Below are positions 3,438-64,000 of a stretch of DNA of 64,000 nt, piece after piece. The notes below the pieces were generated by a model. That model searched no databases, was not told the origin of the DNA, and saw only the letters and a list, made by a program, of their open reading frames with translations. The DNA is from Eledone cirrhosa (taxonomy: Eukaryota): assembly GCA_964016885.1 (NCBI GenBank), contig OZ024742.1:153760001-153824000 (forward strand), written 5' to 3'. The translations under genes were made by a program, and so were the position numbers. Position 1 is the first letter of the stretch. Every line of letters starts with the position of its first letter.

Positions 3438-3856
3438 TGGAATTTCAAATTTGCCGGTCATTCGATGCGGGAGGGAGCTACTTAACAGACACGATTTTTA
3501 ACTGTGGTAAGAAATGTTTTTCTTATATCAAAGTTTAATGGGCTTCCACTGATGATTTATAAACGCCCACCTAAATATATTCTTACATGAATGTATATTA
3601 GGCTTCTACATAAACTGGAAATATTCTCCGAATTTGTAGAAAACTTATAATGAAACAATTGTTTAGAAAGAGAGATATATTTTAACTTTAATTATATCTC
3701 ATAAAATAATACAACTGGCTTTTCCACATAATACATATTTTTAGAACCCCAAACACTTAAATTGGGTTTATATTAAAATATAACCTAATGTTTGTTGAGT
3801 GAGATGGTTACCAGTCAGAGATTAGCTTTAAACTATCTCTGTTATTGTATTAATAA
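3431..3856 (+). mobile_element. HHR-bearing repeat (family also at 31480-32652)
   Basis: High similarity to 31778-32185 and 32240-32652. Type I HHR at 3544-3670: CTTCCA-CTGATGA-long stem II-GAAACAATTGTT-TAGAAAG. Bounded by (TA)n. Confidence 0.8.
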
Positions 3857-4006
3857 TTTATATATATATATATATAATGGAATATATGGAGAGTAGAAAT
3901 GGCTGTGGAGTTGCCCCACCATTCGTATCTGTTTACCTGTCTCTCTTCCTCCACCTAATTTTGTTATCCCAAGAACTTAATTTAGTTATTGTATCGCCCT
4001 AGCTGG

Positions 4007-4073
4007 AGGTATATGGTCGGTAATACAAAGAAATACCTATGATGGCTAGTAGACCACTGATGATGGATAGTCC
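4007..4073 (+). ncRNA. Candidate non-circularly permuted hammerhead ribozyme (copy A)
   Basis: AGGTAT-A-TGGTC...GAA-ATACCT...GACCA-CTGATGA. Stem III is 4007-12/4033-38 (6 bp) and stem I is 4014-18/4052-56 (5 bp). All core nucleotides are present. Confidence 0.6.
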
Positions 4074-4563
4074 TGGCTTCTATTTCTAATTCTTTATTAT
4101 ATATATCATATTTGCAACAACACAGATCGCCATTTTTCATTCATATATGCTTTCCCCTTCGCTGTGACCTGTCTTTTTTCTCTTCCCTTGCAGCTATCCT
4201 CTTTCTCTCTCTCTCTCTTTCTCTCCTTCTCCCTCTTAATTTCACTCACCCCCTCTGCTAGTCAGCCTCTCACAGCTAGCCTCTTCCTCATATTTTCACT
4301 CACTCACTCCCTGCTACTCATCCTCTCTCTCACTTCCTTCGTCATCCCACACCCTACGAAATTCTTTCCTCGCTCACATTCGGACGACCAAGATGTGTCC
4401 TTTGCCTTCTCGTCAATATTCACAAGTTTTTATGTTCAAAATGAATCATTGACTTAATTTTATCATATGTGGCCGACCATTCGTGTATTTACCTGTCTCT
4501 CTTTCTGCACCCAACTCTTTTTATCCCAATAACCTAATTTAGTCATTGTATTGCCCTAGCCGG

Positions 4564-4630
4564 AGTTATATGGTATGTAATGAGAAGAAATACCTATGAT
4601 GGCTAGTATACCACTGATGATGGAGAGTCC
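4564..4630 (+). ncRNA. Candidate permuted hammerhead (copy B)
   Basis: Stem I TGGTAT/ATACCA is compensatory relative to TGGTC/GACCA in copy A. Stem III has one mismatch. GAA and CTGATGA are intact. Confidence 0.55.
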
Positions 4631-5023
4631 TGGCTTCTATTTCTAATTCTTTATTAGATATATCGTATTTGCAACACACAGCTCGACATTTTTCATTTAT
4701 ATATATATATATATCGGTGTCCTGTATGTGTGTACACTTATATGTGTGTGTGAGTAAGAATGTTGGTAACATAACATTATATAAATCTGTCCTATTCCTT
4801 AGCAACACAGAACATTTCTTTACAATTTGATGATGAATATCATCAGAGCATTAGAAGCGAGATTATAGAGTATCCCCCTCCCCGCCAAAGAAAACGTATT
4901 TTTGAATGCCATCTACATACATTGTTAGTGATAAACAATCCGTAGTAAATAACATTCTTAAATAACTTATAATGCATTGAAGTAGCTATTAATTCCATTC
5001 AATGGGTTATGCATAACCATATG

Positions 5024-6170: not shown

Positions 6171-6177
6171 TATTATG

Positions 6178-6541
6178 GTAGTATCGGTAGAGAGTCGGAC
6201 GCCATGCTTTCCAGCATAGTTACGTCCCTTGGCTATCTGAGTTCAAATCCCGCCGAGGTTCACTTTGCCTTTCATCCTTACGGGGTCGATAAAATAAAGT
6301 ACAAGTAACGCACTGGGTAATTGCTGGCCTTGTGCCATAAGTAGAAACAATTATTATTGGATTGGCAGTATTGGTAGATGATCGGACGCCATGCTTTCCA
6401 GCATAGTTACCTCCTTTAACGATCGGAATTCAAATCGCGCCAAGGTTGCCTTTGCCTTTCATCCTTACGGGGTCGATAAAATAAAGTACCAGTAATGTAC
6501 TGGGTAATTGCTGGCCTTGTGCCAAATGTAGAAACAATTAT
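6178..6541 (+). mobile_element. Two tandem SINE copies
   Basis: 6178-6356 and 6357-6541 both match the SINE consensus. Confidence 0.88.
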
Positions 6542-7404: not shown

Positions 7405-8725
7405 GAGGTGAGTTTTATTGTAGTACAATAAAGCAATGCAGATCTCGGATAAGAAGCACTCTACAGTTTGTAGGACTGGAGTATACATAATATATAAGAA
7501 CAGAAGATGGTTAAAGGAGTTCCATGTATTTTATTATGCGCATTTCAAAAACAAACATCATCATGCAATAATATTTGTGTTTTCATCAGATAAAACAGGA
7601 GGACATGATATGAAGGCTAAAAAACACTTGTGGATAGTGCAGTTTTAAATCAACATATGAGAAGTAGTTTTAGATTGATGTGTAATATTGGGGAAAATAT
7701 TTTACTTAGAGGGGGGGGGGGAGGAGGAGATGAATATAATGAGGAAGGATGAGATAGGAGGAGAGATTGGTGATAGAGAGAGAGAGATAGTTTTTATAAC
7801 TGAGAAAGATATATTGTTTTACACAGAGGGGTTGAAAACCGTTGGAAGATAATGTATGAATTAAAAGAATTTGAAAATTCACGAAGAAGGTGAGGGAGTT
7901 AATATGTATTGAGAATAATGAGTTTGATGATAGAGAGAAGAAAATAATGAATACCGGATGAATGTTCTAACGTCAAAAAAGTTTTGTATGTTTACAAGTA
8001 TTATGGAAATTTGAAAATTAACGAAATTTGAAAATTAACGAAGAGAAATAAGTGTAAAGTTAAGGATTTGAGAAAAATAATGTGAAGTTAAGGTTTGTAT
8101 ATTGAAAGAATTGATAATATGTGCGAAGAAAGTTAATATGTATTGAGAATGAGTTAGATGATAAGGAGAAAAAAATAATGAATTAAGGATGAATAATCTG
8201 GCGTCAAAACAAATGTATATTTACGAAGGATTTTACAAGGTGAAAATAGAGTAAGGGTAATGAGTAAACAAGTATTATAGAGTGTATAATACCCTTTGAA
8301 ATAAGGTAGGAAGATGGGTATATTTTAAAAGAGGTGTATATTTTAAAAGATGTGCCTTTGAGAAAAAGATTCTAAATTGATAAAGAATTGAATATTAGCT
8401 GTATACTTTGCGAAATGTTTTATGGAATTTATTCAAGCAGTTAGAAAACAAATCAGTTCGTCTATTTATTATAGAATCTAGATTAGAGATAACGGTAAAA
8501 TTTTCATTTAGGCAGAGATTGCAGATTTTAGATATAGAACTGTTCAAGTATGAAGACGCAGAAGAAACCTTCTTCCAAAGGATGGTATATTTAATGTTTT
8601 TGTCTTCCAAGGACCATATGAGTTCTGAGAGAGCCGTGTTGGTTCTTTTAAGTTTGTATTTAAAAGATGAATGATGATTATAGAGACGAGCTTTAAAAGA
8701 GGTGGAAGTGGAGCCAAAATAGATA
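7403..8725 (-). mobile_element. 5'-truncated Naiad-type PLE (family 2): GIY-YIG C-terminus plus 3' region
   Basis: 8725->8395 reads YFGSTSTSFKARLYNHHSSF...TALSELIWSL...ILWK...CNLCLNE...IINRRTDLFSNC. 7403-7655 is shared with 48278-48527. Confidence 0.8.
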
Positions 8726-8804
8726 TATATTATATATAGCCATATATTATATATATATATTATACAGGGTCAGGATAATATAACCATATTCTACTACCTC
8801 ACGT

Positions 8805-21635: not shown

Positions 21636-22029
21636 TATATTAATAAGAGGAATTCCAACTTTGTCTGATTTACTCGTTTTATTTACAATCATTTAATATT
21701 TATAATGGTATTATAATGAAATAGTATGATAGAATATTAAATTCTAAGTGTTAATTGAACAAGTACTTTCATGGTTTCGCAATCTTCAGGTTCATAATAT
21801 GTGGTGACAGTCAAGTTTGCAATTTTCAACTGACAGTTGAAAATTGCAAACTTGACTGTCACCACATATGTCACTGCAACCTGAAGAATGCGAAAGCATG
21901 AAAGTACTTGTTCAATTAACACTTAGAATTTAATATTCTATCAAACTATTTCATTATAGTACCATTCTAAATTTTAAAGGATTGTAAATAAAACGAGTAA
22001 ATCAGACAAAGTTGGAATTCCTCTTATTA

Positions 22030-25289: not shown

Positions 25290-25786
25290 GTATAAATGGC
25301 ATCTCTCTCCCCCTTACCTCTCCTTCTCCCTCTTAATTCCATTCACGCCCTCTGCTAGTGACCCTCTCTCGGCTAGCTTCTTCCTCACACTTTCACTCAC
25401 TCACTCTCCGCTACTCACCTTCCCTCTCACTTCCTCCATCGTCCCACACCGTGCGTAATTCTTTCCTCGCTTACTTTCGCATGGTTGGGACGTGTCTCTC
25501 GTCTTCTCATCAATATTCACAAGTTCTTATGTTCAAACGAATCAATGACTTGATTTTCTCATTTTTTCCTCTCTTTACTTTGCCTCACCATTAATGTTTG
25601 TTTAACTGTCTCTCTTTCTCCACCCAATTCTTTATAGCCCAAAAACTAATTTTAGTTATTGTTTGCGCTAGCCTGAGGTATCTGGTCTTTAATGCAAATA
25701 ATATCTATGATGGATAGTCCTATTTCTAATTCTTCATTTTAATTTGTATATCCCAATGCAACAACAAAGCGCGCAATTTTTCATTC

Positions 25787-25790
<4 letters not shown>
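25290..25790 (+). repeat. CT-rich family monomer with a deleted ribozyme core
   Basis: AGGTAT-C-TGGTC is present, but the segment between the two TGATGG repeats (containing GACCA-CTGATGA) is missing. Confidence 0.75.
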
Positions 25791-25848
<58 letters not shown>

Positions 25849-26049: not shown

Positions 26050-26343
26050 TAAATATGATAATAATGGAGCTGCGGCGTTGCATATGGGTTACTTATGAAA
26101 AGGTCTGTCCTTCATCAGTGATCTTCCAACCATCATAGGCATTTCATCGCTTTAAAGACTATATACCTCCGGTTGGTGCGAGCAACGGCTAAAAAAAGTC
26201 GCTGGGAGACGTAAATAATTATTTACGTGTCCCAACGACTTTTTTCAGACGTTGCTCGAACCAACCGGAGGTATATGGTCTTTAAAGCGATGAAATGCCT
26301 GTGATGGTTGGAAGATCACTGATGAAGGACAAACTTTTTCATA
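26050..26343. repeat. Palindrome of permuted-HHR subfamily 2
   Basis: Centre at 26218|26219, arms about 125 bp, flanked by (TA)n. Confidence 0.85.
26269..26330 (+). ncRNA. Candidate permuted hammerhead (copy D; mirror copy on - strand at about 26107-26168)
   Basis: AGGTAT-A-TGGTCTTT-aaagcgat-GAA-ATGCCT-gtgatggttg-GAAGATCA-CTGATGA-A. Stem III is 6 bp; stem I is 8 bp including G-U pairs. Confidence 0.6.
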
Positions 26344-30954: not shown

Positions 30955-31026
30955 GATGTGTTGGTGTAAATGGTAGCACAGTGGTCTGGATAACCAAAGA
31001 TGTGGGTTCGACTCCCATGTACGTCA
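30955..31026 (+). tRNA. tRNA-like pseudogene or orphan SINE head
   Basis: Cloverleaf with GATGTGT/GTACGTC acceptor (wobble-rich), GTGT/GCAC D stem, TGGT-CTGGATA-ACCA anticodon arm and GTGGG-TTCGACT-CCCAT T arm. A GGA anticodon with a short variable arm is atypical. Confidence 0.5.
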
Positions 31027-31479: not shown

Positions 31480-32652
31480 TTTCCAGATACCTTTTAAACG
31501 TAAATTTCCGTATTTATTACTGTTATGAGATATTGTTTGTTATTTAGGTATCGCTTCTCTGTTTTTAGCCTCGGAAAATATCTATATGCGTGTGTAGTTA
31601 ATACATGCATACATTTATTTTTTTGGAATTAATTGAGTTCTTAACACGCACGATTGATAATGTTTTTGAAAAAAATAATTAACCCACGTGTATATTATTT
31701 TACTTTCTTGTGACTCGCGATTGCCTCCCTTTTCCGCTTTCGTGACGCTATGATGTTTCCTCAGTCTAAAGACTGATGGAATTTCAAATTTGGCGGTCAT
31801 TTGATGCGTGAGAGGACGACTTAGCGGACATGAAGAATAACTGCGGTAAGACATTTTTTCTTATATCAAAGTTTAATGGGCATCCACTGATTTATAAGTG
31901 CCCACCTACATATGTTCTTACAGAGAAATATATGTTAGGCTTCTACATAAACCGGAAACATTCTCCCAACTTGTAGAAAACTTATAATGAAACAATTGTT
32001 TGGAAAGAGAGATATATTTTAATTTTAATTATATCTCATATAAAATAATACAACTGGCTTTCCACAAAATACACATAGTTAGCACCCCAAACACAAAATT
32101 AGGATTATACTAACGTATATCCTAATGTTTGTTGAGTGAGATGGTTACCAGTCAGAGTTTAGCTTAAAGCTTTCTCTGTTATTGTATTAAATATTTTACT
32201 CTTGATTTGGCCAGAGATCCAGATATCTTTTAAACGTAACTTTCAAATTTGGCGGTCATTTGATGCGTTAGGGGACGACTTCGCGGACACGAATAATAAC
32301 TGCGGTAAGAAATGTTTTCTTATATCAAAGTTTAATCTGCATCCACTGATGATTTATAAGTACCCACCTACATATGTTCTTACAGAGAAATATATGTTAG
32401 GCTTCTACATAAACCGGAAACATTCTCCCAACTTGTAGAAATCTTATAATGAAACAATTGTTTGGAAAGAGAGATATATTTTAATTTTAATTATATCTCA
32501 TATAAAATAATACAACTGGCTTTCCACAAAATACATTTAGTTAGCGCCCCAAACACAAAATTAGGATTATACTAACGTATATCCTAATGTTTGTTGAGTG
32601 AGATGGTTACCAGTCAGAGTTTAGCTTAAAGCTTTCTCTGTTATTGTATTAA
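31480..32652 (+). mobile_element. Tandem dimer of an HHR-bearing repeat (retrozyme/pLTR-like)
   Basis: Unit about 740 bp; the second unit has an internal deletion. Intact HHR at 32342-32466 (TCCA/TGGA stem I, GAAACAATTGTT). The first unit lacks TGA in the core. Confidence 0.8.
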
Positions 32653-32748
32653 TTATATATATATATATATATATGCTTTTGTGAGTATGTATTTTTGTGC
32701 GAGAATATGCACGTTTATGTATATGTGCTTGTGTATGTATGTATATTT

Positions 32749-32796
<48 letters not shown>

Positions 32797-33011
32797 GTTA
32801 AAAATGTACATCCATATATGTATACTGAAATACTAGTATGCATATGAATACACACACGTATACATGTGTAGATGTACCAAGTCTTTCACTGGTTACTTTA
32901 CTGTGAGTATCCAGCTATTCTGTATGTAAACACACAGACAAACCGGTTTTTAGAGTCATACTGGTTTTTGAGGAAACACCTTTCCTCTATTCTGCAGAAA
33001 GCCAGACAAGG

Positions 33012-33056
33012 AATATTGAACTAGTTTCGTTGTTGTTACAACTCATCAGCAATATT
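33012..33056 (-). ncRNA. Minimal type I hammerhead (also 33478-33522 mutated, 33943-33987 intact)
   Basis: AATATTG-CTGATGA-GTTGT-AACA-ACAAC-GAAACTAGTT-CAATATT. Confidence 0.9.
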
Positions 33057-34364
33057 TACCTATCTACCGGCCATTCTGGAGAATCGTAAAAGCACATATC
33101 GTTATATGCTTTTTCTATGAAAATTTGTAGTGGGCAGACTAATTTGCATAGAGTGTGAGTACGTACCGGTTCAACGGAGACGATAAAAACAAAAAACGAA
33201 ACGAAATTAAATTTCGTTTCGTTTGTAACTCACTTTTGTATGACTGACGCTTAAACAATTAAGTTAAAAATGTACATCCATATATGTATACTGAAATACT
33301 AGTATGCATATGAATACACACACGTATACATATGTAGATGTACCAAGTCTTTCACTGGTTACTTTACTGTGAGTATCCGGCTATTCTGTATGTAAACACA
33401 CAGACAAACCGGTTTTTAGAGTCATACTGGTTTTTGAGGAAACACCTTTCCTCTATTCTCCAGAAAGCCAGACAAGGAATATTAAACTGGTTTCGTTGTT
33501 GTTACAACTCATCAGCAATATTTACCTATCTACCGGCCTTTCTGGAGAATCGTAAAAGCACATATCGTTATATGCTTTTTCTATGAAAATTAGTAGTGGG
33601 CAGACTAATTTGCATAGAGTGTGAGTACGTACCGGTTCAACGGAGACGATAAAAACAAATAACGAAACGAAATTAAATTTCGTTTCGTTTGTAACTCATT
33701 TTGTATGACTGACGCTTAAACAATTAAGTTTAAAATGTACATCCATATATGTATACTGAAATACTAGTATGCATATGAATACACACACGTATACATATGT
33801 AGATGTACCAAGTCTTTCACTGGTTACTTTACTGTGAGTATCCAGCTATTCTGTATGTAAACACACAGACACACCGGTTTTTAGAGTCATACTGGTTTTT
33901 GAGGAAAGACCTTTCCTCTATTCTGCAGAAAGCCAGACAAGGAATATTGAACTAGTTTCGTTGTTGTTACAACTCATCAGCAATATTTACCTATCTACCG
34001 GCCTTTCTGGAGAATCGTAAAAGCACATATCGTTATATGCTTTTTGTATGAAAATTAGTAGTGGGCAGACTAATTTGCATAGAGTGTGAGTACGTACCGG
34101 TTCAACGGAGACGATAAAAACAAATAACGAAACGAAATTAAATTTCGTTTCGTTTGTAACTCAGTTTTGTATGACTGACGCTTAAACAATTAAGTTAAAA
34201 ATGCACATCCATATATGTATACTGAAATACTAGTATGCATATGAATACACACCGGTACGTACTCACACTCTATGCACAATAATCTGCCCACTACTAATTT
34301 TCATACAAAAAGCATATAACGATATGTGCTTTTACGATTCTCCAGAAAGGCCGGTAGATAGGTA

Positions 34365-34899: not shown

Positions 34900-34949
34900 T
34901 TGTATGTGTATATATATGCATATATATATATATATTTACCTAAACTGCG

Positions 34950-35612
<663 letters not shown>

Positions 35613-39173: not shown

Positions 39174-39749
<576 letters not shown>

Positions 39750-39954: not shown

Positions 39955-41500
39955 GAAAATAAAACAAAGAAGCCTTCAATACATCAAAAGTCTTTATTAG
40001 CAAACAATGTTTCGTCCTATTAAGGACTCATCAGGGCAATTAAATCTAAAAGAAGCACTATCGGCCAATACAAGCCGAAAACTCAGAAGAATATGGAGTG
40101 TACATACACTGAAGTATTGGAAGATTATGGGTAAAAATATATAATACAAATCACTAAGGAGGTGGATAACATCTTGAACCATATTACAAATATAGTCCAA
40201 AGCCAAAAAACTAGAGTTAAACAAAGGTGGTTATATAGATGGTTTATAGATGGTTTATTTGGATTCTTCATTGGATAACTCCCCCCCCCTCCCCCCATGC
40301 ACGCATAAACTTATTGCTAACCCCTTCAAATATATTATGATTATATTTAATCCCCTTTTTTATGCTCCTTTGATACAGTATATTGATTACGATTTTATGT
40401 TCCTTTGTATCCCACATACATTTCTTTTTTTCTGTCCACATTAGCCTACCATAATTCTGCTTAAAATCAGTTTATTAGATAACGTTATTTAAATGATAGT
40501 AGAATATTTATAGTTGATATCTTAATGTTTAGGGATTTTGATTACTTAAACCATAGCTAATATTGTATTGCCTTATTAAGTATTTTAAATATTTTCAATA
40601 TTAATTTATCAAATAGGGTTTTCTAGTCATTTATCCGGGTTGTTTCCTAAGTTTTTACTTAACTGCATGTGAGACCTAAGTAAATACTTTTGTTTTTGTT
40701 TTTTGATTTCCGGTCGATTTTATTTATTTATTTATTAATACTACTGTGCATAGTATTTTCTGTCTGGCCCTTATTCACTCATTCACATATGTGTATGTTT
40801 ACCAACCTTGTAATTATAAGTTATTATATACTATACTATGTTCATTATTTTATATTGAAGTTGTTATTCAACTCTTTGTAAATGTACTATTGATCTTTAT
40901 TACTTACCGATGATTTTATGTACCATTACTTTTAATCATTTCATTACTTCATGTTATACTGTATATTATATATACGTATTATTTTGATTTTTATTCCTAT
41001 TATGCTTATTTATATTTAAACTCTTAATAAGGTTTAATTGGTGCTGTTAATGATGGAAATGTGTATTGATGTATATGTATATGTGCGCACGTGTGTGTAT
41101 ATATATACATATGTATATTGTGCCTTTTAATTTTAATTTTAATTTTTAATATTGTTACAAGTATATTATATTATATTATATTATATTGTATTACATATAG
41201 TACTATAATTCCCGCTCTATATAACCACCTTTGTTTAGCTCTAGTTTTTTTTGCTTTGGACTATATGTGTAATATGCTTCAAGATGTTATCCACCTCCTT
41301 AGTGATTTTTATTATATATGTTTACCCATAATCTTCCAATACTTTAGTGTATGTACACTCCATATTCTTCTGAGTTTTCGGCTTGTATTGGCCGATAGTG
41401 CTTCTTGTAGTTTTAATTACCCTGATGAGTCCTTAATAGGACGAAACATTGTTGGCTAATAAAGACTTTTGATGTATTGAAAGCTTCTTTGTTTTATTTT
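39955..41500. mobile_element. PLE-type 3' fragment with an inverted terminal copy (arms 39955-40236 and 41218-41500)
   Basis: HHR CC-CTGATGA-GTCCT-TAAT-AGGAC-GAAACATTGTT-GG at 41416-41460 (+), with a mirror at 39996-40040 (-). Confidence 0.82.
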
Positions 41501-41681: not shown

Positions 41682-42552
41682 GTCTTCTTGTCAATATTCA
41701 CAAGTTCTTATGTTCAAATGAATCATTGACTTGATTTTCTCATTTTTTCCTCTCTTTACGTTGCCTCACCATTCATGCTTGTTTAGTTGTCTCTCTTTCT
41801 CCACCCAATTCCTTTTATCCCAATAAATTATTTATGTTATTGTTCGCGCTAGCCTGGGGCATCTGGTCTTTCATCCGAAGAAATACGTATGATGGCTAGT
41901 AGAGCACTGATGATGGATAGTCCTATTTCTAATTCTTCATTCTAAATTGTATATCACTTATGCAACAACACAGCTCGCCATTTTCCATTCCTATATGCTT
42001 TTCCCTTAGTTGTGACCTGTCCTTTTCTCTTCCCTTACTGTTATCCTCTTTCTCTCTCCCCCTTCTCTCTCCTTCTCCCTCTTACTTTCATTCAACCCCT
42101 CTGTGAGACACCCTCTCTCGGCTAGCCTCTTCCTCACTCTTTCACTCACTCACCCTCTGCTACTCACCTTCCCTCTCACTTCCTCCATCGTCCCACACTG
42201 TTCGTAATTCTTTCCTCGCTTACTTTCCCATGGTTGGGATGTGTCTCTCGTGTTCTCGTCAATATTCGCAAGTTCTTATGTTCAAATGAATCATTGATTT
42301 GATTTTCTCATTTTCTCCTCACTTTACGTTGCCTCACCATTCGTGTTTGTTTACCTGTATCTCTTTCTCCACCCAATTCTTTTTATCCCAATAACTTATT
42401 TTAGTTATTGTTCGCGCAAGCCCGAGTTATCTGGTTTTAATGAAAATACGTATGATGGCTAGTAGATCACTGATGATGGATAGTCCTATTTCTAATTCTT
42501 CATTTTAATTTGTATATCACATATGCTACAACACAGCACGCCATTTTTCATT
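41680..42552 (+). repeat. CT-rich family, about 1.5 tandem units (period about 568) with decayed permuted motifs
   Basis: Motifs at about 41857-41913 and 42425-42476 retain AT-C-TGGT, ATAC and CACTGATGA. Confidence 0.8.
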
Positions 42553-42585
42553 TATATATATATGTATGTATATATATTTATATGT

Positions 42586-42785: not shown

Positions 42786-44317
42786 CTATTTACTGATCTA
42801 TAACATACTTGACCTCCTTTTCAACCCAAGAGACACATAAAACATATGCGCATATTGATCAACAGTGGGGTGACATTCATCAAATGATATAGCATGGCAA
42901 TTTACATATAAAGGTTACAGGATAAAAATAAAATAAAAACAAGTGTGAAAATAAAGATAAACATGAAGCGTTGGCAGTCTATGAAGATAAAGCAAGAGGA
43001 AAGCTTAGAGTAGTCAGTGTATGAAACAATCTCCCGTGTAGCATGCACGCGTGTCTTATTTATACATGATTAGAGTGCGTCAGAATGATATTTGCAGGGT
43101 CAGGCAGTTGAAGCAGGCAATCGATCTTATTATGTAGGCTGAATTATTAAGTCATTTATTCTCATACATCTGTATGATATACAGTCTCGGATGCGGGGAA
43201 ACACCAAAATATCAAAAACTTTCAACATACTATAAACCTTATTGTATCGTAGGCAAGGCCGTATCACTGTCCTTGCTCACACCACCACTCACATAATCCA
43301 TGAGACGCAATATATATAGGGAACAGGCGTCTATCGTATAATTCGCGGTGGTTCAGCATATAGTCAAGCTATAAACCGTATGCAGTCGGTTCTTAATTAA
43401 TATATCATGCTGTCCAGATTCCGGAAGTGCCTGAATGACTAAGGGGAATTAATGCGTAAGGGGAGGTAACTAGCTAGTTATCTTAGTTACATTACTATCC
43501 TAAACTACATTAATGGTGATTCAAATACGTGCCTATCATGTGAAGTTATAACTAATATCTAGAGTATGTTACCCATTTATAGGTTAGAGAGTTGTCCATT
43601 AAGAAGTACAAGGGTGTATATATTAGGATGATTACCATCCGTTAATTAAGGGGTGTCATATCTGAACGTTCTATAAGAGGAGTCAGACTCTCAAGTCACT
43701 GCTCCATGCAAATGTAATATAACAGTAGGACCTGGTATGGTCCCACTATTATATATTCCACCCGGTAGGCTCCGGGTCATTGCATGTCTGCATCTCCAGT
43801 AAATCTTCGGTATGGTCCGGAGATCCAATCTCTCATATAAATGCACTAGTCTGGCCAACAAGCAATAGACAACCCCCGTCTCAAATATAAATCAATTATG
43901 TATCACATCTACAAGCTAGAGTGAAGTCTATGAATAGGTACTAAAGGAGTTCACATCAAGATGATTACGTGCATAATTCATTGAACTGACCGCTTACATT
44001 ATATATTCACATAACAATACGATTATCTATCTAATCATCAATCTATCTCTTGGTGGTAATCCATGCACAGGACTATGCTATCGCAACCAGTACCGTGTCC
44101 CCAATTTATACTAATCTTATATTTGTGCAATGCAGAATAAGTAGTCCACGGTCGAGATATCAGTATTAGAGGTACAAGGGGGTATTCCCAGGGTAGGTGG
44201 TACTAAAATGCTGTCAGTATTATCTTTAGAGTATAGAGATGGGTGTGGATGTGAGGTGTAAGGTGTGCTACTGATGTTAATTGCTAGGGGTGGTGCCGGT
44301 TCCTGTCTGACATTATT

Positions 44318-46790
44318 ATATATAGGGTTTAAAGTTTTGGAACGAGTGTCGGAAGCGGTGTTGGCAATTTGCGAACACTTCTGATTTTTTTTATTAAGGA
44401 GATTATGTTTAGAGAAGATGATAGTATGGGTCTCTAGTAGACAGAGGTTACAAAATTTATCAGGTGGTTTGTACGATGTTGCACTACCTACCACTTCCCA
44501 TTTAAGGGTATATATTTTATTTTTAGTTTTTAGATAGTGTATGTAGCTAGATAGTGATGTGGAGTTGGCTAGACTGTGTTTTTTGAAAGAGTGGAGGTGC
44601 GAATTGTATCTAGTTTTGAAGCAGTTAGAAGTGGAGCCTATGTAGATTTCAAAAGAGCTGTTAGTTGTGACTGTACATGAGTATATGATATCCTTGGTTA
44701 AGCATTTTTTATCTAAAGGGCAGGTTCTACTTGATCTACAGTTACAATTACTCTGGGTGCTAGTCTGCCGGTTACTATGCTGTGTAGAAGTTTGGATGTT
44801 AGCTATAGGGTTATGGTTATGCGGGTTGTGGTACGCAGCGTTAATGTTTACACTAGTGCTATTACTATTATTTCCATTGATATTACGGTTATTTGTTATA
44901 ATGTTACTTTGACTGTTATTTTGAATGTTATTTTGAAGGTTTATCGACCGTTGTGATTTAGTTTGTTGGAAGTAAGAATTAATTTTTCTTTTATTTGTAC
45001 TAGCTATGTGGTATGCTAAGTTAGGCGTAGTAGAGTATGAGATCTTAATAGTGTTTTTGTTTAAAAGGCCGTGGTACCTGTGTCCGGATGGGAAGTGTTT
45101 ATCTAGTAGTGAGAAGAAAGCCCTAGGAAGGTTGGTAGAGACGTTTAAATTGAAAGGAGGGTTGAAAAATGTATTATTTCTTCTTCTATTTCTGTTTTTT
45201 ATGTCTGGCGATTTGTTTCCTTTAATGTTCCTATGGTCATTTCTGTGGTGCGGGTTACTCTTGTTGTTACAATCCCTATTAGTGTGTGTGCAGTTGCTAT
45301 TCCTATTATTAAATTTTCCCATGGACATGTTTTGTGAAATGATGTTGTAGCTATGTGTTTTTGTAGGTAGGAACTCTATCCCTGTATTATGGCCTGATCT
45401 AGCTAATGCCTGATTATAATACTGCGAGTTATTGTTAAATGTGTTTATGTCATAGGATAGATTAGAGATTCTATTAGATACTCCCTTAGAGATAGAGTTC
45501 AATATAGAATTAGGGTGGTTAGACTTGGTATCTACGTAGATGAGTTTTTCATTAGGTTTGTGGAAAGGTGCATAAATCATTGAGTCTAAGTAGAGTGTGG
45601 CATCTAGGAAGTTGACGTTTTTGGTGTTTTTCTCCATGGTAATACTAAGGTTAAAGTTTTTGAATGTTTAGTGCAAAAGTTTTCTAGTCCTTTCTATATT
45701 GAATTTTTTATAGTCTATAAGTAGAAGTGCATCGTCGCGATACAAACCACCGCTGAGGTACGGAAGTTCCCTGTGGATTAGGTTAAGTAAGTATAGGCCA
45801 ACCAAATCAGTGACCTGCGCCGAGTCACTAGACCCCATAGTAATGTCGAAGTTGTTTTGCGTATCCTTGCGGGTTCATAATTAGTCCTCAAAGGTGATTA
45901 TTGTTTTACGGGCCGCAAGTATGACATCACTCTGGGGTCTAGTCAAGTCACTATTGTCTATGGCCATTATAAGTGCCTTATTTAGTAGGATAGGGGAAAT
46001 AGAGGTGCAGTAAGAGTTGATATCAAATTGAATAAATTTGTTATCCTTGTTATCTATGATATTTTTGAACCATTCAATCACTTCACCCGTATTTCCCCAA
46101 ATCTTGTGTTTAATCTGTGGGATGATTTTGTCTAGGATTTTTTTTACTGATAATGCCAATGTCAGACCTGGAAAGGCAGATTAGTCTAATCGAGGGGTTG
46201 CTAATGAAGTCTACCTTATGGTCCTTCAGAGAGAATCTAGGGAGGTTTGGGGTGTAAGGTTGTGTATGTCTCTGAAGCCCTAGTTTGGATACTATATTAT
46301 AGCCTTCCATATTAATATCTTCTAAGTTTTTCATAGTGGTTTTCTCGTAGCTTTTATGTAGTTCATTATATATAAACTTTCTATACGTATTATAATCTAG
46401 GCTGTATATCTTATTAGTTTTGTCGGCATGTACAAAAATGTTACTACTAGTTTTGAAGTCATTAATAGAGGTGCTAAGTTTGTTTAAGAAGGTGTTGTTT
46501 TTATTATGGTGTTTTTTGTATTTAATGTTTTTAACTAGTTTAATTAAGTCGTTTTCGAAGAGGTTTAGTAGTGTGTTATGAGGGGGGCTTCTAAATGTTT
46601 TAAAGCCGAAGGAGTCAAATTTGTTGGTGTTATTATCCTTGCCAGATTTGTTTCTATCATAATGGAATGTCCTCCATCTCACTCTATTGATAAAGGAGTT
46701 TACACTGTTGAACAACAACTTTTCATATGTATTTTTGGTCGGTAAAGGTATGTTCTTGGTTGACATAGGGAGTTGGTCTTTGATTAGCAT
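44318..46790 (-). pseudogene. PLE RT-GIY-YIG polyprotein, frameshifted and with stops
   Basis: ADKTN, LKDHK, PSIRLI, FIQFDI, FDITMGSSDSAQVTDLVGL, GLYRDDAL, VNFLDATL, SNHP, FNPPF, CNC...CPLDKKCL...IIY...YIGST...FKTRYNSH...CNLCLLE...LLNKK. YRDD and this cysteine pattern fit the Naiad clade. Confidence 0.9.
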
Positions 46791-47977
46791 GCTGGTAATT
46801 TATGGTATATCAGCTCAACAAAATGGAGCAGTTATTAGTATTAAGGGTACTATTTATGGTTATGTATGCAATAAAACCTTTAATGGTAATATATTATATA
46901 TACAAACCCTAAATAGTGAGAGATAGTCATTAATTACTATCCTATTACCAGTAAGATAAATAGCTCAATGTAATAACATCGGTTGTTTTACAGAGCAGTT
47001 ATATAGAGATTACAGTAATCAAAGTACAGTTTAAGTCATTTATTTGCTTACAATTGTTTCCTCCAAACCGAGGTTTGGATTGTTCGGAGCAACTATTTAC
47101 TGATCTATAACATACTTGACCTCCTTTTCAACCCAAGAGACACATAACACATATGCGCATATTGATCAACAGTGGGGTGACATTCATCAAATGATATAGC
47201 ATGGCAATATACATATAAAGGTTACAGGATAAAAATAAAATAAAAACAAGAGTGAAAATAAAGATAACCATGAAGCGTTGGCAGTCTATGAAGATAAAGC
47301 AAGAGGAAAGCTTAGAGTAGTCAGTGTATGAAACAATCTCCCGTGTAGCATGCACGCGTGTCTTATTTATACATGATTAGAGTGCGTCAGAATGATATTT
47401 GCAGGGTCAGGCAGTTGAAGCAGGCAATCGATCTTATTATGTAGGCTGAATTATTAAGTCATTTATTCTCATACATCTGTATGATATACAGTCTCGGATG
47501 CGGGGAAACACCAAAATATCAAACACTTTCAACATACTATAAACCTTATTGTATCGTAGGCAAGGCCCTATCACTGTCCTTGTTCACACCACCACTCACA
47601 TAATCCATGAGACGCAATATATATAGGGAACACGCGTCTATCGTATAATTCGCGGTGGTTCAGCATATAGTCAAGCTATAAACCGTATCCAGTCGGTTCT
47701 TAATTAATATATCATGCTGTCCAGATTCCGGAAGTGCCTGAATGACTAAGGGGAATTAATGCGTAAGGGAAGGTAACTAGCTTTTTATCTTAGTTACATT
47801 ACTATCCTAAACTACATTAATGGTGATTCAAATACGTGCCTATAATGTGAAGTTATAACTAATATCTAGAGTATGTTACCCATTTATAGGTTAGAGAGTT
47901 GTCCATTAAGAAGTACAAGGGTGTATATATTAGGATGATTACCATCCGTTATATATATATATATATATATATATATA

Positions 47978-61899: not shown

Positions 61900-64000
61900 G
61901 AGGTGTCCTACACGAGTGAAAGTATAAAGAAATAAAGATGAAATCGAAAATACAACTGGAGTCTTATTTTAAAAAATATATATATATTTATTTGGTTCCT
62001 TTACCGATTTCGCAGTTCTTCTGCTTTTCAAAAGTAGAGTTCAGATGGAGGGTCTGTGGTTTTTCTCACATCTAGTTGGTCTCTGAATGTTACTTGTTTT
62101 ATATGGACAATGTGGCTCGAAATGCCAGGTTTTTCGAGAAGTAATTTGATTGGTTGGTCAATAATTATAATAAATTTCACGCCAGTTCGCGTTATAAAGT
62201 TCTTCAAACACGGGGGGGGGGGGGTCACAGGTTGTTTTTTTCATATTTGAATTTCTTTTTACTTAAAATAAAGGGGGGCTCACGAAGTTTTTTTCTAATA
62301 AACGTAATTTGATTGGTTAAAAATGAAATTATGGCTGTCATGTGAACAAGTTTTCATTAAATTTTCGCGCCGTTATTTGGAAATCTATTCTGTATCCTTT
62401 TTAGAGAATTTTATGACAAGCAAAAGATAATGGTCAAGAGAAATTGGATGGGAGAATTGTTCTGGTTCAGTGAATATGGTTAGTTCGCTGGGGTGTCAGA
62501 ATTCAGATTTTCTATTGAAGTAAAGAAAGTAAAGATGTGTATGTTTATTTGTGTGCTTGTGTGTGTGTGTGTGTGTGTATATATGTATGTAGGAAAGTGA
62601 TTCTATTAGTAGAAATGGGGGAGGGAGTTGTGTGGGTATGGGTGTTATGTGTGTGGGAGTATGGTTAGCATGTTAAGATGTAGATAATATATATATATTG
62701 TGTGTGTGTGTAGGAAAATGATTCCTTAATAGGAATATTTTTGAATGAACATATTTTCCTTACTTATACGTATTTGTTCTGTTGTATTGTCAGTGCAAAT
62801 GTATGTTAAGGTTTATTTAGTTCGGGTTTTTATTTTCTAAAGTAGAAGGTGTTATGTGCGTGTGTGTATGTCATATTATGGTGTTGACATAATGTATATT
62901 AAACCATATTTAATGCTGGTCTATATTTTTGAATAAACATATTTCCCTTATTTATTCGTATTTGTTCTGTTGTATTGTTAGCGCAAAGGTAAAGTGGGAA
63001 GACTTGAAATGTGGGTGTCTTATTACTTGCGCATATGTCTAGATGTGCGCTTAGAGGTATCTCTCTCGTGGTTGGATCTCGTAATTGTTGGCGATGAACT
63101 GTCATTCTGTTTCGGAGTGTGAGTTTAGTTTGTCCTATATAATCTTCATTGCATCCTTTACATTTAATGGCATAAAGCAGAATTTTTGATGAGCAAGTGA
63201 AGTGATTTTTTACAGTAAAATGTTGTCCTGATTTAAATGTATACGTGTTGCCTTCAATGAGGTGAGTGCAGGTTCCACAATTAGAGCGACCACATTTTTT
63301 TGACAGTTGGTTGTGGGTTTGTGGTAGGTAATTTGGCATTGGTGAGTAATGTTTTTAGTGATTTCGATTGTCTTTTGCTTTTGATTTTTTTGTGTGTTTC
63401 AAGGGCTTTTTTCATTCTTGGATTTTGGTTTAGTAGTGGGGTGTTCTTGTGAATAGTGTTGTAAGCTTCCGCATTTCTTGGGTTGTGTGTCGAGATATAT
63501 GATAGAATATTGGACGTACCTTGAATTTGTTTCTGTTTTCGTAATTCATCAATGCCTATTGCTTTAGCCCTTTCTATTCCATTATTTATTAGTAATGGTG
63601 GGTACTCTCTTTCGAGTAGAATTTCCTTTAGTTGTTGAAGTCTTTTATTTCGCGTTTTGGAGACAATTGTGCAAATTATTCTTGCTAGGTTAAAAGGAAT
63701 GTTCGTCTTCGTGTGCTTTGGTTGGTTGGAGGTGAATAGCAGGTATTGTTTGGAATCTGTTGGTTTGTAGTGTATGTCAGTTTCAATATTTGTGTCTTTT
63801 CTTAAATTAAGATGTCCAGAAATGGGAGTTGATCGTGGCTGTATTCCATTGTGAATTGGATGTGGTTATTGATGACGTTTATTAAGTTTTTGAAATCCTT
63901 CATTTGATCGAGTGTGTGGGACCAAAGAATGAGACAATCATGCAAGTAGCGTTTCCAATTCTCAGATAAATATTTGTGGAAGTTCAATCCGTATTTTGAT
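61900..64000 (-). mobile_element. Neptune-type PLE, decayed, running off the window end
   Basis: WKRYLHDCLILW...IQFTME...LPFLDILI (RT), KPTD, and CGRSNCGTC...FTCSSKILLYAIKCKGCNEDYIGQT...LRNRMTVH (GIY-YIG, 62899-63339). Decayed HHR at 61997-62036 (GCAG-AAGAA-CTGC-GAAATCGGTA). Confidence 0.88.

Follow-up and report, generated by a model that had tools for sequence, protein, structure and literature searches.

The window analysed here is a 64,000-nucleotide stretch of the Eledone cirrhosa genome (assembly GCA_964016885.1, contig OZ024742.1, positions 153,760,001 to 153,824,000 of the forward strand), and it contains copies of a non-coding tandem repeat in which each unit carries one candidate hammerhead ribozyme with its conserved strands in a reversed, pseudoknotted order. 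We call the strand with the predicted cleavage site block S, that with GAAA block G and that with CUGAUGA block C; read directly in the first copy (copy A) and by descriptor, the order is S-G-C, not the circular C-G-S order of hammerhead types I-III. A first-pass annotation had proposed this reversal, and its pairings for copy A also hold: stem III 4007-4012/4033-4038, stem I 4014-4018/4052-4056, GAAA at 4030-4033 and CTGATGA at 4057-4063. It let the motif begin at 4007, however, and while the pairings from there onwards are correct, the element starts about 45 nt further 5', at 3965. The insertion that contains copy A and its predicted helices is laid out as follows.

3912..4697, plus strand: subfamily A insertion, a 5'-truncated partial tandem with a 557-bp unit and two ribozyme copies, non-coding (extent from BLAST, 5' edge approximate)
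3965..3969, plus strand: helix b, 5' strand, pairing with 4065-4069 and clamping the two ribozyme ends
3970..3991, plus strand: hairpin c, 7 bp with one mismatch in copy A, stacked on helix b
3994..3997, plus strand: helix d, 5' strand, the displaced stem II strand, pairing with 4025-4028, with two of four pairs broken in copy A
3999..4004, plus strand: stem I/II interaction helix, 5' strand, pairing with 4044-4049
4007..4018, plus strand: block S, with the stem III 5' strand (U16.1 = 4012), predicted cleavage 3' of A4013 and the stem I 5' strand (4014-4018)
4025..4038, plus strand: block G, with the helix d 3' strand (4025-4028), 11.1 (4029), G12-A15.1 (4030-4033) and the stem III 3' strand to 4038
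4044..4069, plus strand: C region, with the interaction 3' strand (4044-4049), the stem I 3' strand (4052-4056), C3-A9 (4057-4063), 10.1 (4064) and the helix b 3' strand (4065-4069)
4522..4626, plus strand: ribozyme copy B, predicted cleavage 3' of A4570, core at 4614

The 3' end of the insertion adjoins a (TA)n tract. Copies A and B are spaced 557 bp apart, in agreement with the proposal of one motif per unit of about 560 bp; intact A units measure 554-574 bp, four shorter A units 359-531 bp, and the units of other subfamilies 527-646 bp (D 612-644 bp, E 527-533 bp, and G 632-646 bp from match positions), each non-coding, in tandem and with one hammerhead. Copy B has one mismatch in stem III, one in helix d and a double-sided change in stem I (4571-4576/4608-4613) that is absent from the other aligned A copies and may mark a small subfamily or templated repair. 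The 3.0-Gb host genome holds many divergent families of 530-650-bp units in (TA)n, and DNA searches returned 1907 candidates for copy A, 288 for D and 732 for E, the best 40 of each being scored. Exact 3'-end tags gave 237 (E) and 328 (A) genome matches and none in reversed controls. Subfamily E copies are 96-97% alike, and the repeat occurs at high depth in three public runs (contigs, at most one sample).

The reversed motif is rare by chance. An S-G-C descriptor demanding at least 4 bp each in stem I and stem III gave 162 distinct matches in 1.06 Mb of selected loci and none in the reversed sequence or in two shuffles, and it was passed by one of 80 viral stretches that already contained GAAAC followed by CTGATGA. 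A core-plus-linker pattern matched the genome 342 times versus twice in the reversed control; the strict descriptor was passed by 10 of 30 loci from this pattern and by 3 of 30 from a second family search, and many of the non-passing pattern loci are truncated, decayed or chance matches. A further genome pattern was not discriminating (406 matches versus 875 reversed) and served only to spot families; one of its 16 hand-picked short loci passed the strict descriptor. In a family seen on the plus strand of L314 and L315 the reversed-order pattern matched by chance; a canonical core in C-G order, made of CUGAUGA, a short hairpin and GAAA, follows directly downstream. As had been anticipated, standard descriptors miss the motif, an Rfam scan of the window finding a tRNA only and no hammerhead family. 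A canonical type I-III reading across unit junctions would need three units and an unpaired local stem III hairpin, and is not favoured.

Each core base is kept in 211-216 of the 217 full-length distinct copies of subfamilies A-F, which were gathered with a profile that includes the core. The 11 core positions average 98.9% majority base versus 83% in the other 104 columns, of which 51 also reach 95%; on average the core does exceed the other columns, as a check suggested in the first-pass annotation had asked. The cleavage base had been described as always A or C and never G: it is indeed never G, with 128 A and 87 C, and one copy each has T and a gap. The reported covariation of the 10.1:11.1 pair extends to the larger sample, with a standard pair in 180 of the 217 copies (G-T 84, T-A 50, A-T 43, other 3) and exceptions that are mainly C.A (21) and A.A (7).

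Aligning 105 distinct copies with 45 extra upstream bases revealed four further helices. From 5' to 3', the element reads helix b strand, hairpin c, helix d strand, interaction strand, block S and a linker; the linker is followed by the helix d partner, GAAA with the stem III partner, the interaction partner, the stem I partner, CUGAUGA, one base and the helix b partner. The strand before GAAA thus pairs upstream and the strand after CUGAUGA still further upstream, and block C is interrupted, with at most one pair after A9 and the remaining stem II pairs made with an upstream strand. Stem II had been regarded as a weak point, a single pair followed by a GGA..TCC hairpin. It is instead a four-way junction with its partner strand upstream, and the hairpin, real only in the A/F subfamilies, is outcompeted by the covarying helix b and was rejected as stem II. 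Family J, read by eye, apparently has no hairpin c, so that the junction can be three-way. Copy A itself is decayed, its hairpin c having one mismatch and its helix d two, and does not show the shared fold in plain folding. The fragment 3995-4085, suggested for a cleavage test, omits the upstream strands of helices b and c; because of this and of the mismatched helix d, such a test with copy A would probably give a false negative.

For the covariation analysis, the 217 copies were reduced to 46 clusters, from which 18 representatives were picked by hand and joined by window copy A (a stretch without helix b). In these 19 sequences, 92.2% of 657 cells of the named structure were paired versus 82.2 +/- 0.7 in shuffles, and 21 of 35 pairs showed double-sided changes versus 11.2 +/- 1.9, a value reached in 0 of 500 shuffles, with the limits that the structure was derived from the sequences tested, that the shuffles ignore relatedness and that the representatives were hand-picked. 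Sliding the partners by 1-3 columns left 30-46% of cells paired. Double-sided changes were found in three of five pairs of helix b (88.9% of cells paired), five of seven of hairpin c, five of six of the interaction helix (96.5% paired), four of six of stem I, whose covariation had been noted from a few copies, and in the 10.1:11.1 pair. Ten of the 34 copies of family G gave 85.0% paired versus 82.3% in shuffles and 8 of 37 double-sided pairs versus 4.4 (5 of 500 shuffles). The rewriting of helices between families, with the core kept, is a stronger argument from the sequences than these statistics: in the G, K, J, P and M-like families the helix sequences are rewritten, stem III included, and helix d of family G is of unrelated sequence and includes a canonical G10.1-C11.1 pair. 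Several further sequence-unrelated families have the same block order (L311-L313, L126:4075-4195, L147/L158/L159, L325 and L318, the last being the match closest to the end of Naiad_Obim), and family P has a competing local hairpin after the core.

These results bear directly on the idea that chance motifs in a palindromic DNA repeat mimic a ribozyme and that no RNA structure is selected. Such a view could draw on the weak folding z-scores of five of six sequences (+1.6 to -1.7; family G, -4.8) and on a loose automatic parser, not used as evidence, which in several sequences settled on alternative short pairings for b or d and could not resolve 5 of the 19. Plain folding nonetheless recovered the nested helices b, c, interaction and III in five of six sequences, the sixth being the decayed copy A. 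Moreover, the descriptor, pattern, shuffle and viral-stretch controls, the covarying pseudoknotted helices, G-U wobbles that fit one strand and the same fold, read by eye, in distant Naiad retrotransposons all argue against chance, which is already largely refuted and to which we give next to no weight. The fold is almost certainly selected as RNA.

Among known ribozymes the motif comes closest to type SGC. Eckert, Friedrich, Weinberg and Weinberg (2023, PMC10085705) named six block orders and validated SGC and CSG in vitro, SGC at 0.007-0.19 per minute; their 583 SGC examples come from metatranscriptomes only, and no example from a known organism is given except one GCS candidate. The present motif resembles these type-SGC ribozymes (HRIMA-1 and SGC variant) in block order, comparable stem lengths and interaction helix, and its helix sizes match those of the active SGC-1. 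It differs in that the stem II partner of type SGC follows CUGAUGA directly, while here it lies upstream of block S and the junction is closed by helix b. CUGAnGA and its adjacent paired strands were assumed in that work never to be separated, and the descriptor for SGC requires C before GAAA and, immediately behind CUGAUGA(U)G, a partner strand for stem II; for this reason a RefSeq search would presumably pass the present motif by. A term search of the supplement did not find 'Octopus'. Type CSG, known from two metagenomic sequences, belongs to the same reversed circle by circular permutation; its opening lies between G and C and it has no helices b and c, whereas the motif described here is opened inside C.

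The geometry of the S-G-C fold raises the question of its working unit. The rival explanations considered here and below are not mutually exclusive. In one of them the active form would be dimeric or extend over two neighbouring tandem units. Either block C of unit n would join S and G of unit n+1, in a C-S-G arrangement with the 450-nt unit body as the loop of helix b, or two units would exchange strands as a double hammerhead. Only 2-3 and 5 nt link the interaction helix to the far end of stem III although stems II and III point apart, the same puzzle that Eckert et al. flagged (PMC10085705), and every pairing counted in the covariation test could form between units. Amphibian retrozyme hammerheads work better as dimers (PMC7229834), and nematode Naiads, read by eye, use C-S-G. 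Yet monomeric SGC RNAs with equally short linkers cleave (PMC10085705), local hairpins fold first, and several Naiad consensus records have a single copy at the 3' end. We regard a dimeric unit as unlikely, though the most plausible of the alternatives.

Naiads are Penelope-like retrotransposons (Penelope-like elements, PLEs) that insert into (TA)n as partial tandems with inverted 5'-truncated pieces and were reported to be without canonical hammerheads, while a table file marks an unexplained 'HHR_core' in 10 places (one not in a Naiad) and 'HHR_half_core' in 8 (Craig, Yushenova, Rodriguez and Arkhipova 2021, PMC8557442). We read the Naiad 3' ends of this supplement by eye, covering CTGATGA places 1-52 of 62, every one of the 23 for CTGACGA, the first 10 each for CTGAGGA (of 25) and CTGAAGA (of 43) and, for each GAAAC term, the first 9; the tally is therefore a lower bound. 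The split-stem-II S-G-C fold lies in sense orientation in the 3' region of at least 10 of the 54 Naiad records: Bfor, one Clytia, the three Acropora Naiads Amil, Aacu and Anas, Movir-2, Plae, one Darwinula, Obim and Ovul, from a ctenophore, cnidarians, an acanthocephalan, an ostracod and octopus. Stem I of Naiad_Bfor is only about 2 bp, Aacu has two mismatches, and in Naiad_Plae helices b (5 bp), c (8 bp) and d (6 bp) join without an unpaired base. In Naiad_Obim and Naiad_Ovul the six-helix fold lies downstream of the reverse transcriptase (RT) open reading frame (ORF), the records end about 120 nt after the predicted cut, and, read by eye, they have the loop of hairpin c, the linker that follows stem III and the bases behind the core in common with subfamilies of the repeat. 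All eight nematode Naiad records (Ppac, Parc and Asuum assigned by file order) show the C-S-G form with the interaction helix. In Esco and several arthropod Naiads the core is present and the fold did not parse, and in the incomplete records of Omin and Dcar no core was seen. Three oyster Naiads (CGi, by file order, Sglo and Olur) have no hammerhead core at the 3' end; they have in common another 3' element of about 100 nt, strongly conserved and apparently structured, which may be another ribozyme or an RT recognition element. The repeat, unlike Naiads, has no ORF, while its (TA)n targets, partial tandems, inverted 5'-truncated pieces and, read by eye, its 3' RNA fold are theirs; a Naiad origin is very likely. 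Naiads and their derivatives in several animal phyla likely carry active non-circularly permuted hammerheads, S-G-C with split stem II or, in nematodes, C-S-G.

The insertions have the same anatomy. Searches anchored at the 3' end supplied 90 loci of E, made up of 30 plus 60 regions drawn from the first 100 of the 237 matches, and 50 loci of A, drawn from the first 100 of the 328 matches. Mapped on consensus units, they represent 88 distinct insertions of E and 48 of A. In 78 of the E and 33 of the A insertions the 3' end falls on a single position, about 110-140 nt after the predicted cut, and runs into (TA)n; the unit junction holds an ATAT-like stretch. The 5' ends differ from insertion to insertion, and several adjoin an inverted piece; 29 E and 17 A insertions exceed one unit, and two E and no A insertions exceed two. 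The insertions thus show the features of a Naiad-derived element: targets in (TA)n, one constant 3' end, truncation at the 5' end, incomplete tandems and inverted pieces. Together with the S-G-C order and the covarying stems, this Penelope-like anatomy bears out the first-pass proposal of a retrozyme or PLE-derived family with a non-circularly permuted hammerhead.

In the mechanism that we propose, the repeat would be a non-autonomous retroelement (retrozyme) derived from the 3' end of Naiads. Its RNA would form a hammerhead on the reversed S-G-C circle, newly opened between A9 and the stem II 5' strand, with the helix d strand upstream of block S, helix b clamping the ends, stem II turned into a three- or four-way junction and the interaction helix holding stems I and II together as in validated SGC ribozymes. 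This RNA probably cleaves itself at the predicted site, 3' of position 17. Cleavage would reduce tandem transcripts to unit length, with at least part of the RNA circularised or remaining multimeric, and a Naiad RT/GIY-YIG protein would nick (TA)n and start reverse transcription about 110-140 nt downstream of the cut; such an internal start would yield one constant 3' end together with 5' ends that vary, and also partial tandems and inverted pieces. There is precedent for these steps: a PLE protein initiates reverse transcription internally at AT-rich cuts (PMC11167929), and type I retrozymes occur as unit-length or circular RNA (PMC7229834). For the whole of this reading, a Naiad-derived retrozyme with an RNA-selected fold that cleaves at the predicted site, we estimate a probability of roughly 0.78 from the sequence evidence.

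The 5' ends of the insertions give it modest, indirect support: more of them fall within 40 nt downstream than within 40 nt upstream of the predicted cut (E, 16 versus 4, p 0.006, with equal TA/AT counts; A, 9 versus 2, p 0.03). Several observations weigh against it. Over four window sizes the excess keeps its direction at p values from 0.006 to 0.23. There is no sharp pile-up at +1, the 5' ends clustering at AT-rich spots (+8 to +10, +40 and +62), and 70 of 88 E insertions clearly cross the predicted cut, with one starting at +2. This pattern is compatible with cut ends occurring alongside circles or uncut multimers and is not proof of cleavage. The hammerhead of a Poseidon PLE needed protein in order to cut, and insertion in vitro did not require the hammerhead (PMC11167929). 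The canonical G10.1-C11.1 pair is absent from subfamilies A-F, 37 of 217 copies lacking any standard pair there; double-sided changes are few in helix d (two of four pairs, 90.8% paired) and in stem III within the A-F clade (one of six). To these are added the limits of the covariation test already given and the by-eye nature of the Naiad comparison. Read-through in most insertions, the Poseidon precedent, the non-canonical 10.1:11.1 pairs and the three oyster Naiads without a core could all be accommodated if the hammerhead-derived fold is kept mainly as a protein-binding or reverse-transcription start signal, its self-cleavage being weak, protein-dependent or lost. Such a signal would hardly account for the full set of catalytic residues and a non-G cleavage base, kept both in families with wholly rewritten helices and over several animal phyla, and we consider it improbable.

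The source of the mobilising protein is a further point against a purely Naiad-based cycle. ORF and motif scans detected no Naiad RT ORF in the units or flanks of the fetched loci, and no search of the genome with a Naiad protein was made; the N-terminal GIY-YIG, CxC motif and C-terminal RT ORF of an autonomous Naiad are missing from these loci, and the 880 bases upstream of the most Naiad_Obim-like match (L318) contain no ORF. Cephalopod Naiads have been called long inactive (PMC8557442), yet E copies are highly alike. The ribozyme could then be Naiad-derived and the present copies mobilised by another PLE clade of this genome, one source of support being the other PLE-like ORF remnants and the canonical type I hammerhead family in the window, another that Hydra-1_Obim also inserts into (TA)n (PMC8557442 supplement). 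The distance from cut to 3' end, however, matches that of Naiad_Obim and Naiad_Ovul, and (TA)n targeting and inverted 5' pieces are Naiad traits, which leaves mobilisation by another clade rather doubtful.

Besides copies A and B, the window contains the following members of the family.

25302..25792, plus strand: A/F-type copy with the C block lost by internal deletion
26101..26340, both strands: subfamily D inverted pair of 5'-truncated copies inside (TA)n, cores at 26118 (minus) and 26319 (plus)
34940..35460, plus strand: subfamily E insertion between (TA)n tracts, core at 35388
41684..42555, plus strand: subfamily F partial tandem between (TA)n tracts, cores at 41907 and 42470, unit 563 bp

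Copies B, D and E thus exist as first described, the cores at 41907 and 42470 being additional, and the window totals seven copies with a C block and one deleted copy. Other elements lie nearby. Two canonical type I hammerhead copies with a minimal stem III (41400-41470, plus strand; 39990-40060, minus strand), each near (TA)n, are below the Rfam threshold and typical of another PLE family. PLE-like ORF remnants occur on the minus strand at 44120-46799, 62902-63865 and 8398-8769, the 62902 fragment with a GIY-YIG match; two of seven PLE-like fragments gave Pfam matches, which do not type the clade. Tandem arrays of 462-466-bp units at 31782-34252, to which the sequence at 3440-3560 is related, have CTGATGA on both strands and were not parsed as hammerheads. 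Two 187-bp head-to-tail copies of a repeat like a short interspersed element lie at 6176-6541 and a tRNA-like match at 30955-31026. Long perfect inverted repeats near sequence with CTGAAGA or CTGATGA (39518-39543, 21789-21881 and loci L122, L129 and L130) are probably foldback insertions.

The repeat resembles metazoan non-LTR (non-long-terminal-repeat) retrozymes in its short non-coding tandem units, single hammerhead, low GC content and relation to PLEs (Cervera and de la Pena 2020, PMC7229834; 10.64898/2026.07.22.740005). Those retrozymes, in contrast, have type I hammerheads, 150-450-bp units and demonstrated circular RNA, while the present repeat has a permuted hammerhead, 530-650-bp units and arrays mostly of less than two units. 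The preprint of Li, Clavereau and Pollet (2026, 10.64898/2026.07.22.740005) used type I descriptors only, and PMC13725137 and PMC13159263 only cite earlier permutation work. In keeping with the first-pass statement that none was known in an animal tandem mobile repeat, we found no description of permuted hammerheads in Naiads or animal repeats, most subscription literature and all bioRxiv supplements being outside the coverage.

The finding takes non-circular permutation of RNA beyond the few hundred sequences known from the environment and into animal genomes, where copies number in the thousands, with a hammerhead opening that the discoverers of the permutations had assumed to be absent. It also offers a direct answer to a puzzle of PLE biology, that of Naiads without hammerheads and with unexplained half cores. 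If the proposed reading is true, reversed-order hammerheads would be ancient high-copy parts of animal genomes rather than environmental rarities, and the published claim of hammerhead-less Naiads would fall; should nearly all PLEs prove to have hammerheads after all, there would be less reason to see the ribozymes as mere parasites of these elements. The two permutations of the reversed circle in sister Naiad lineages would then form a natural series on the origin of permutations by tandem duplication.
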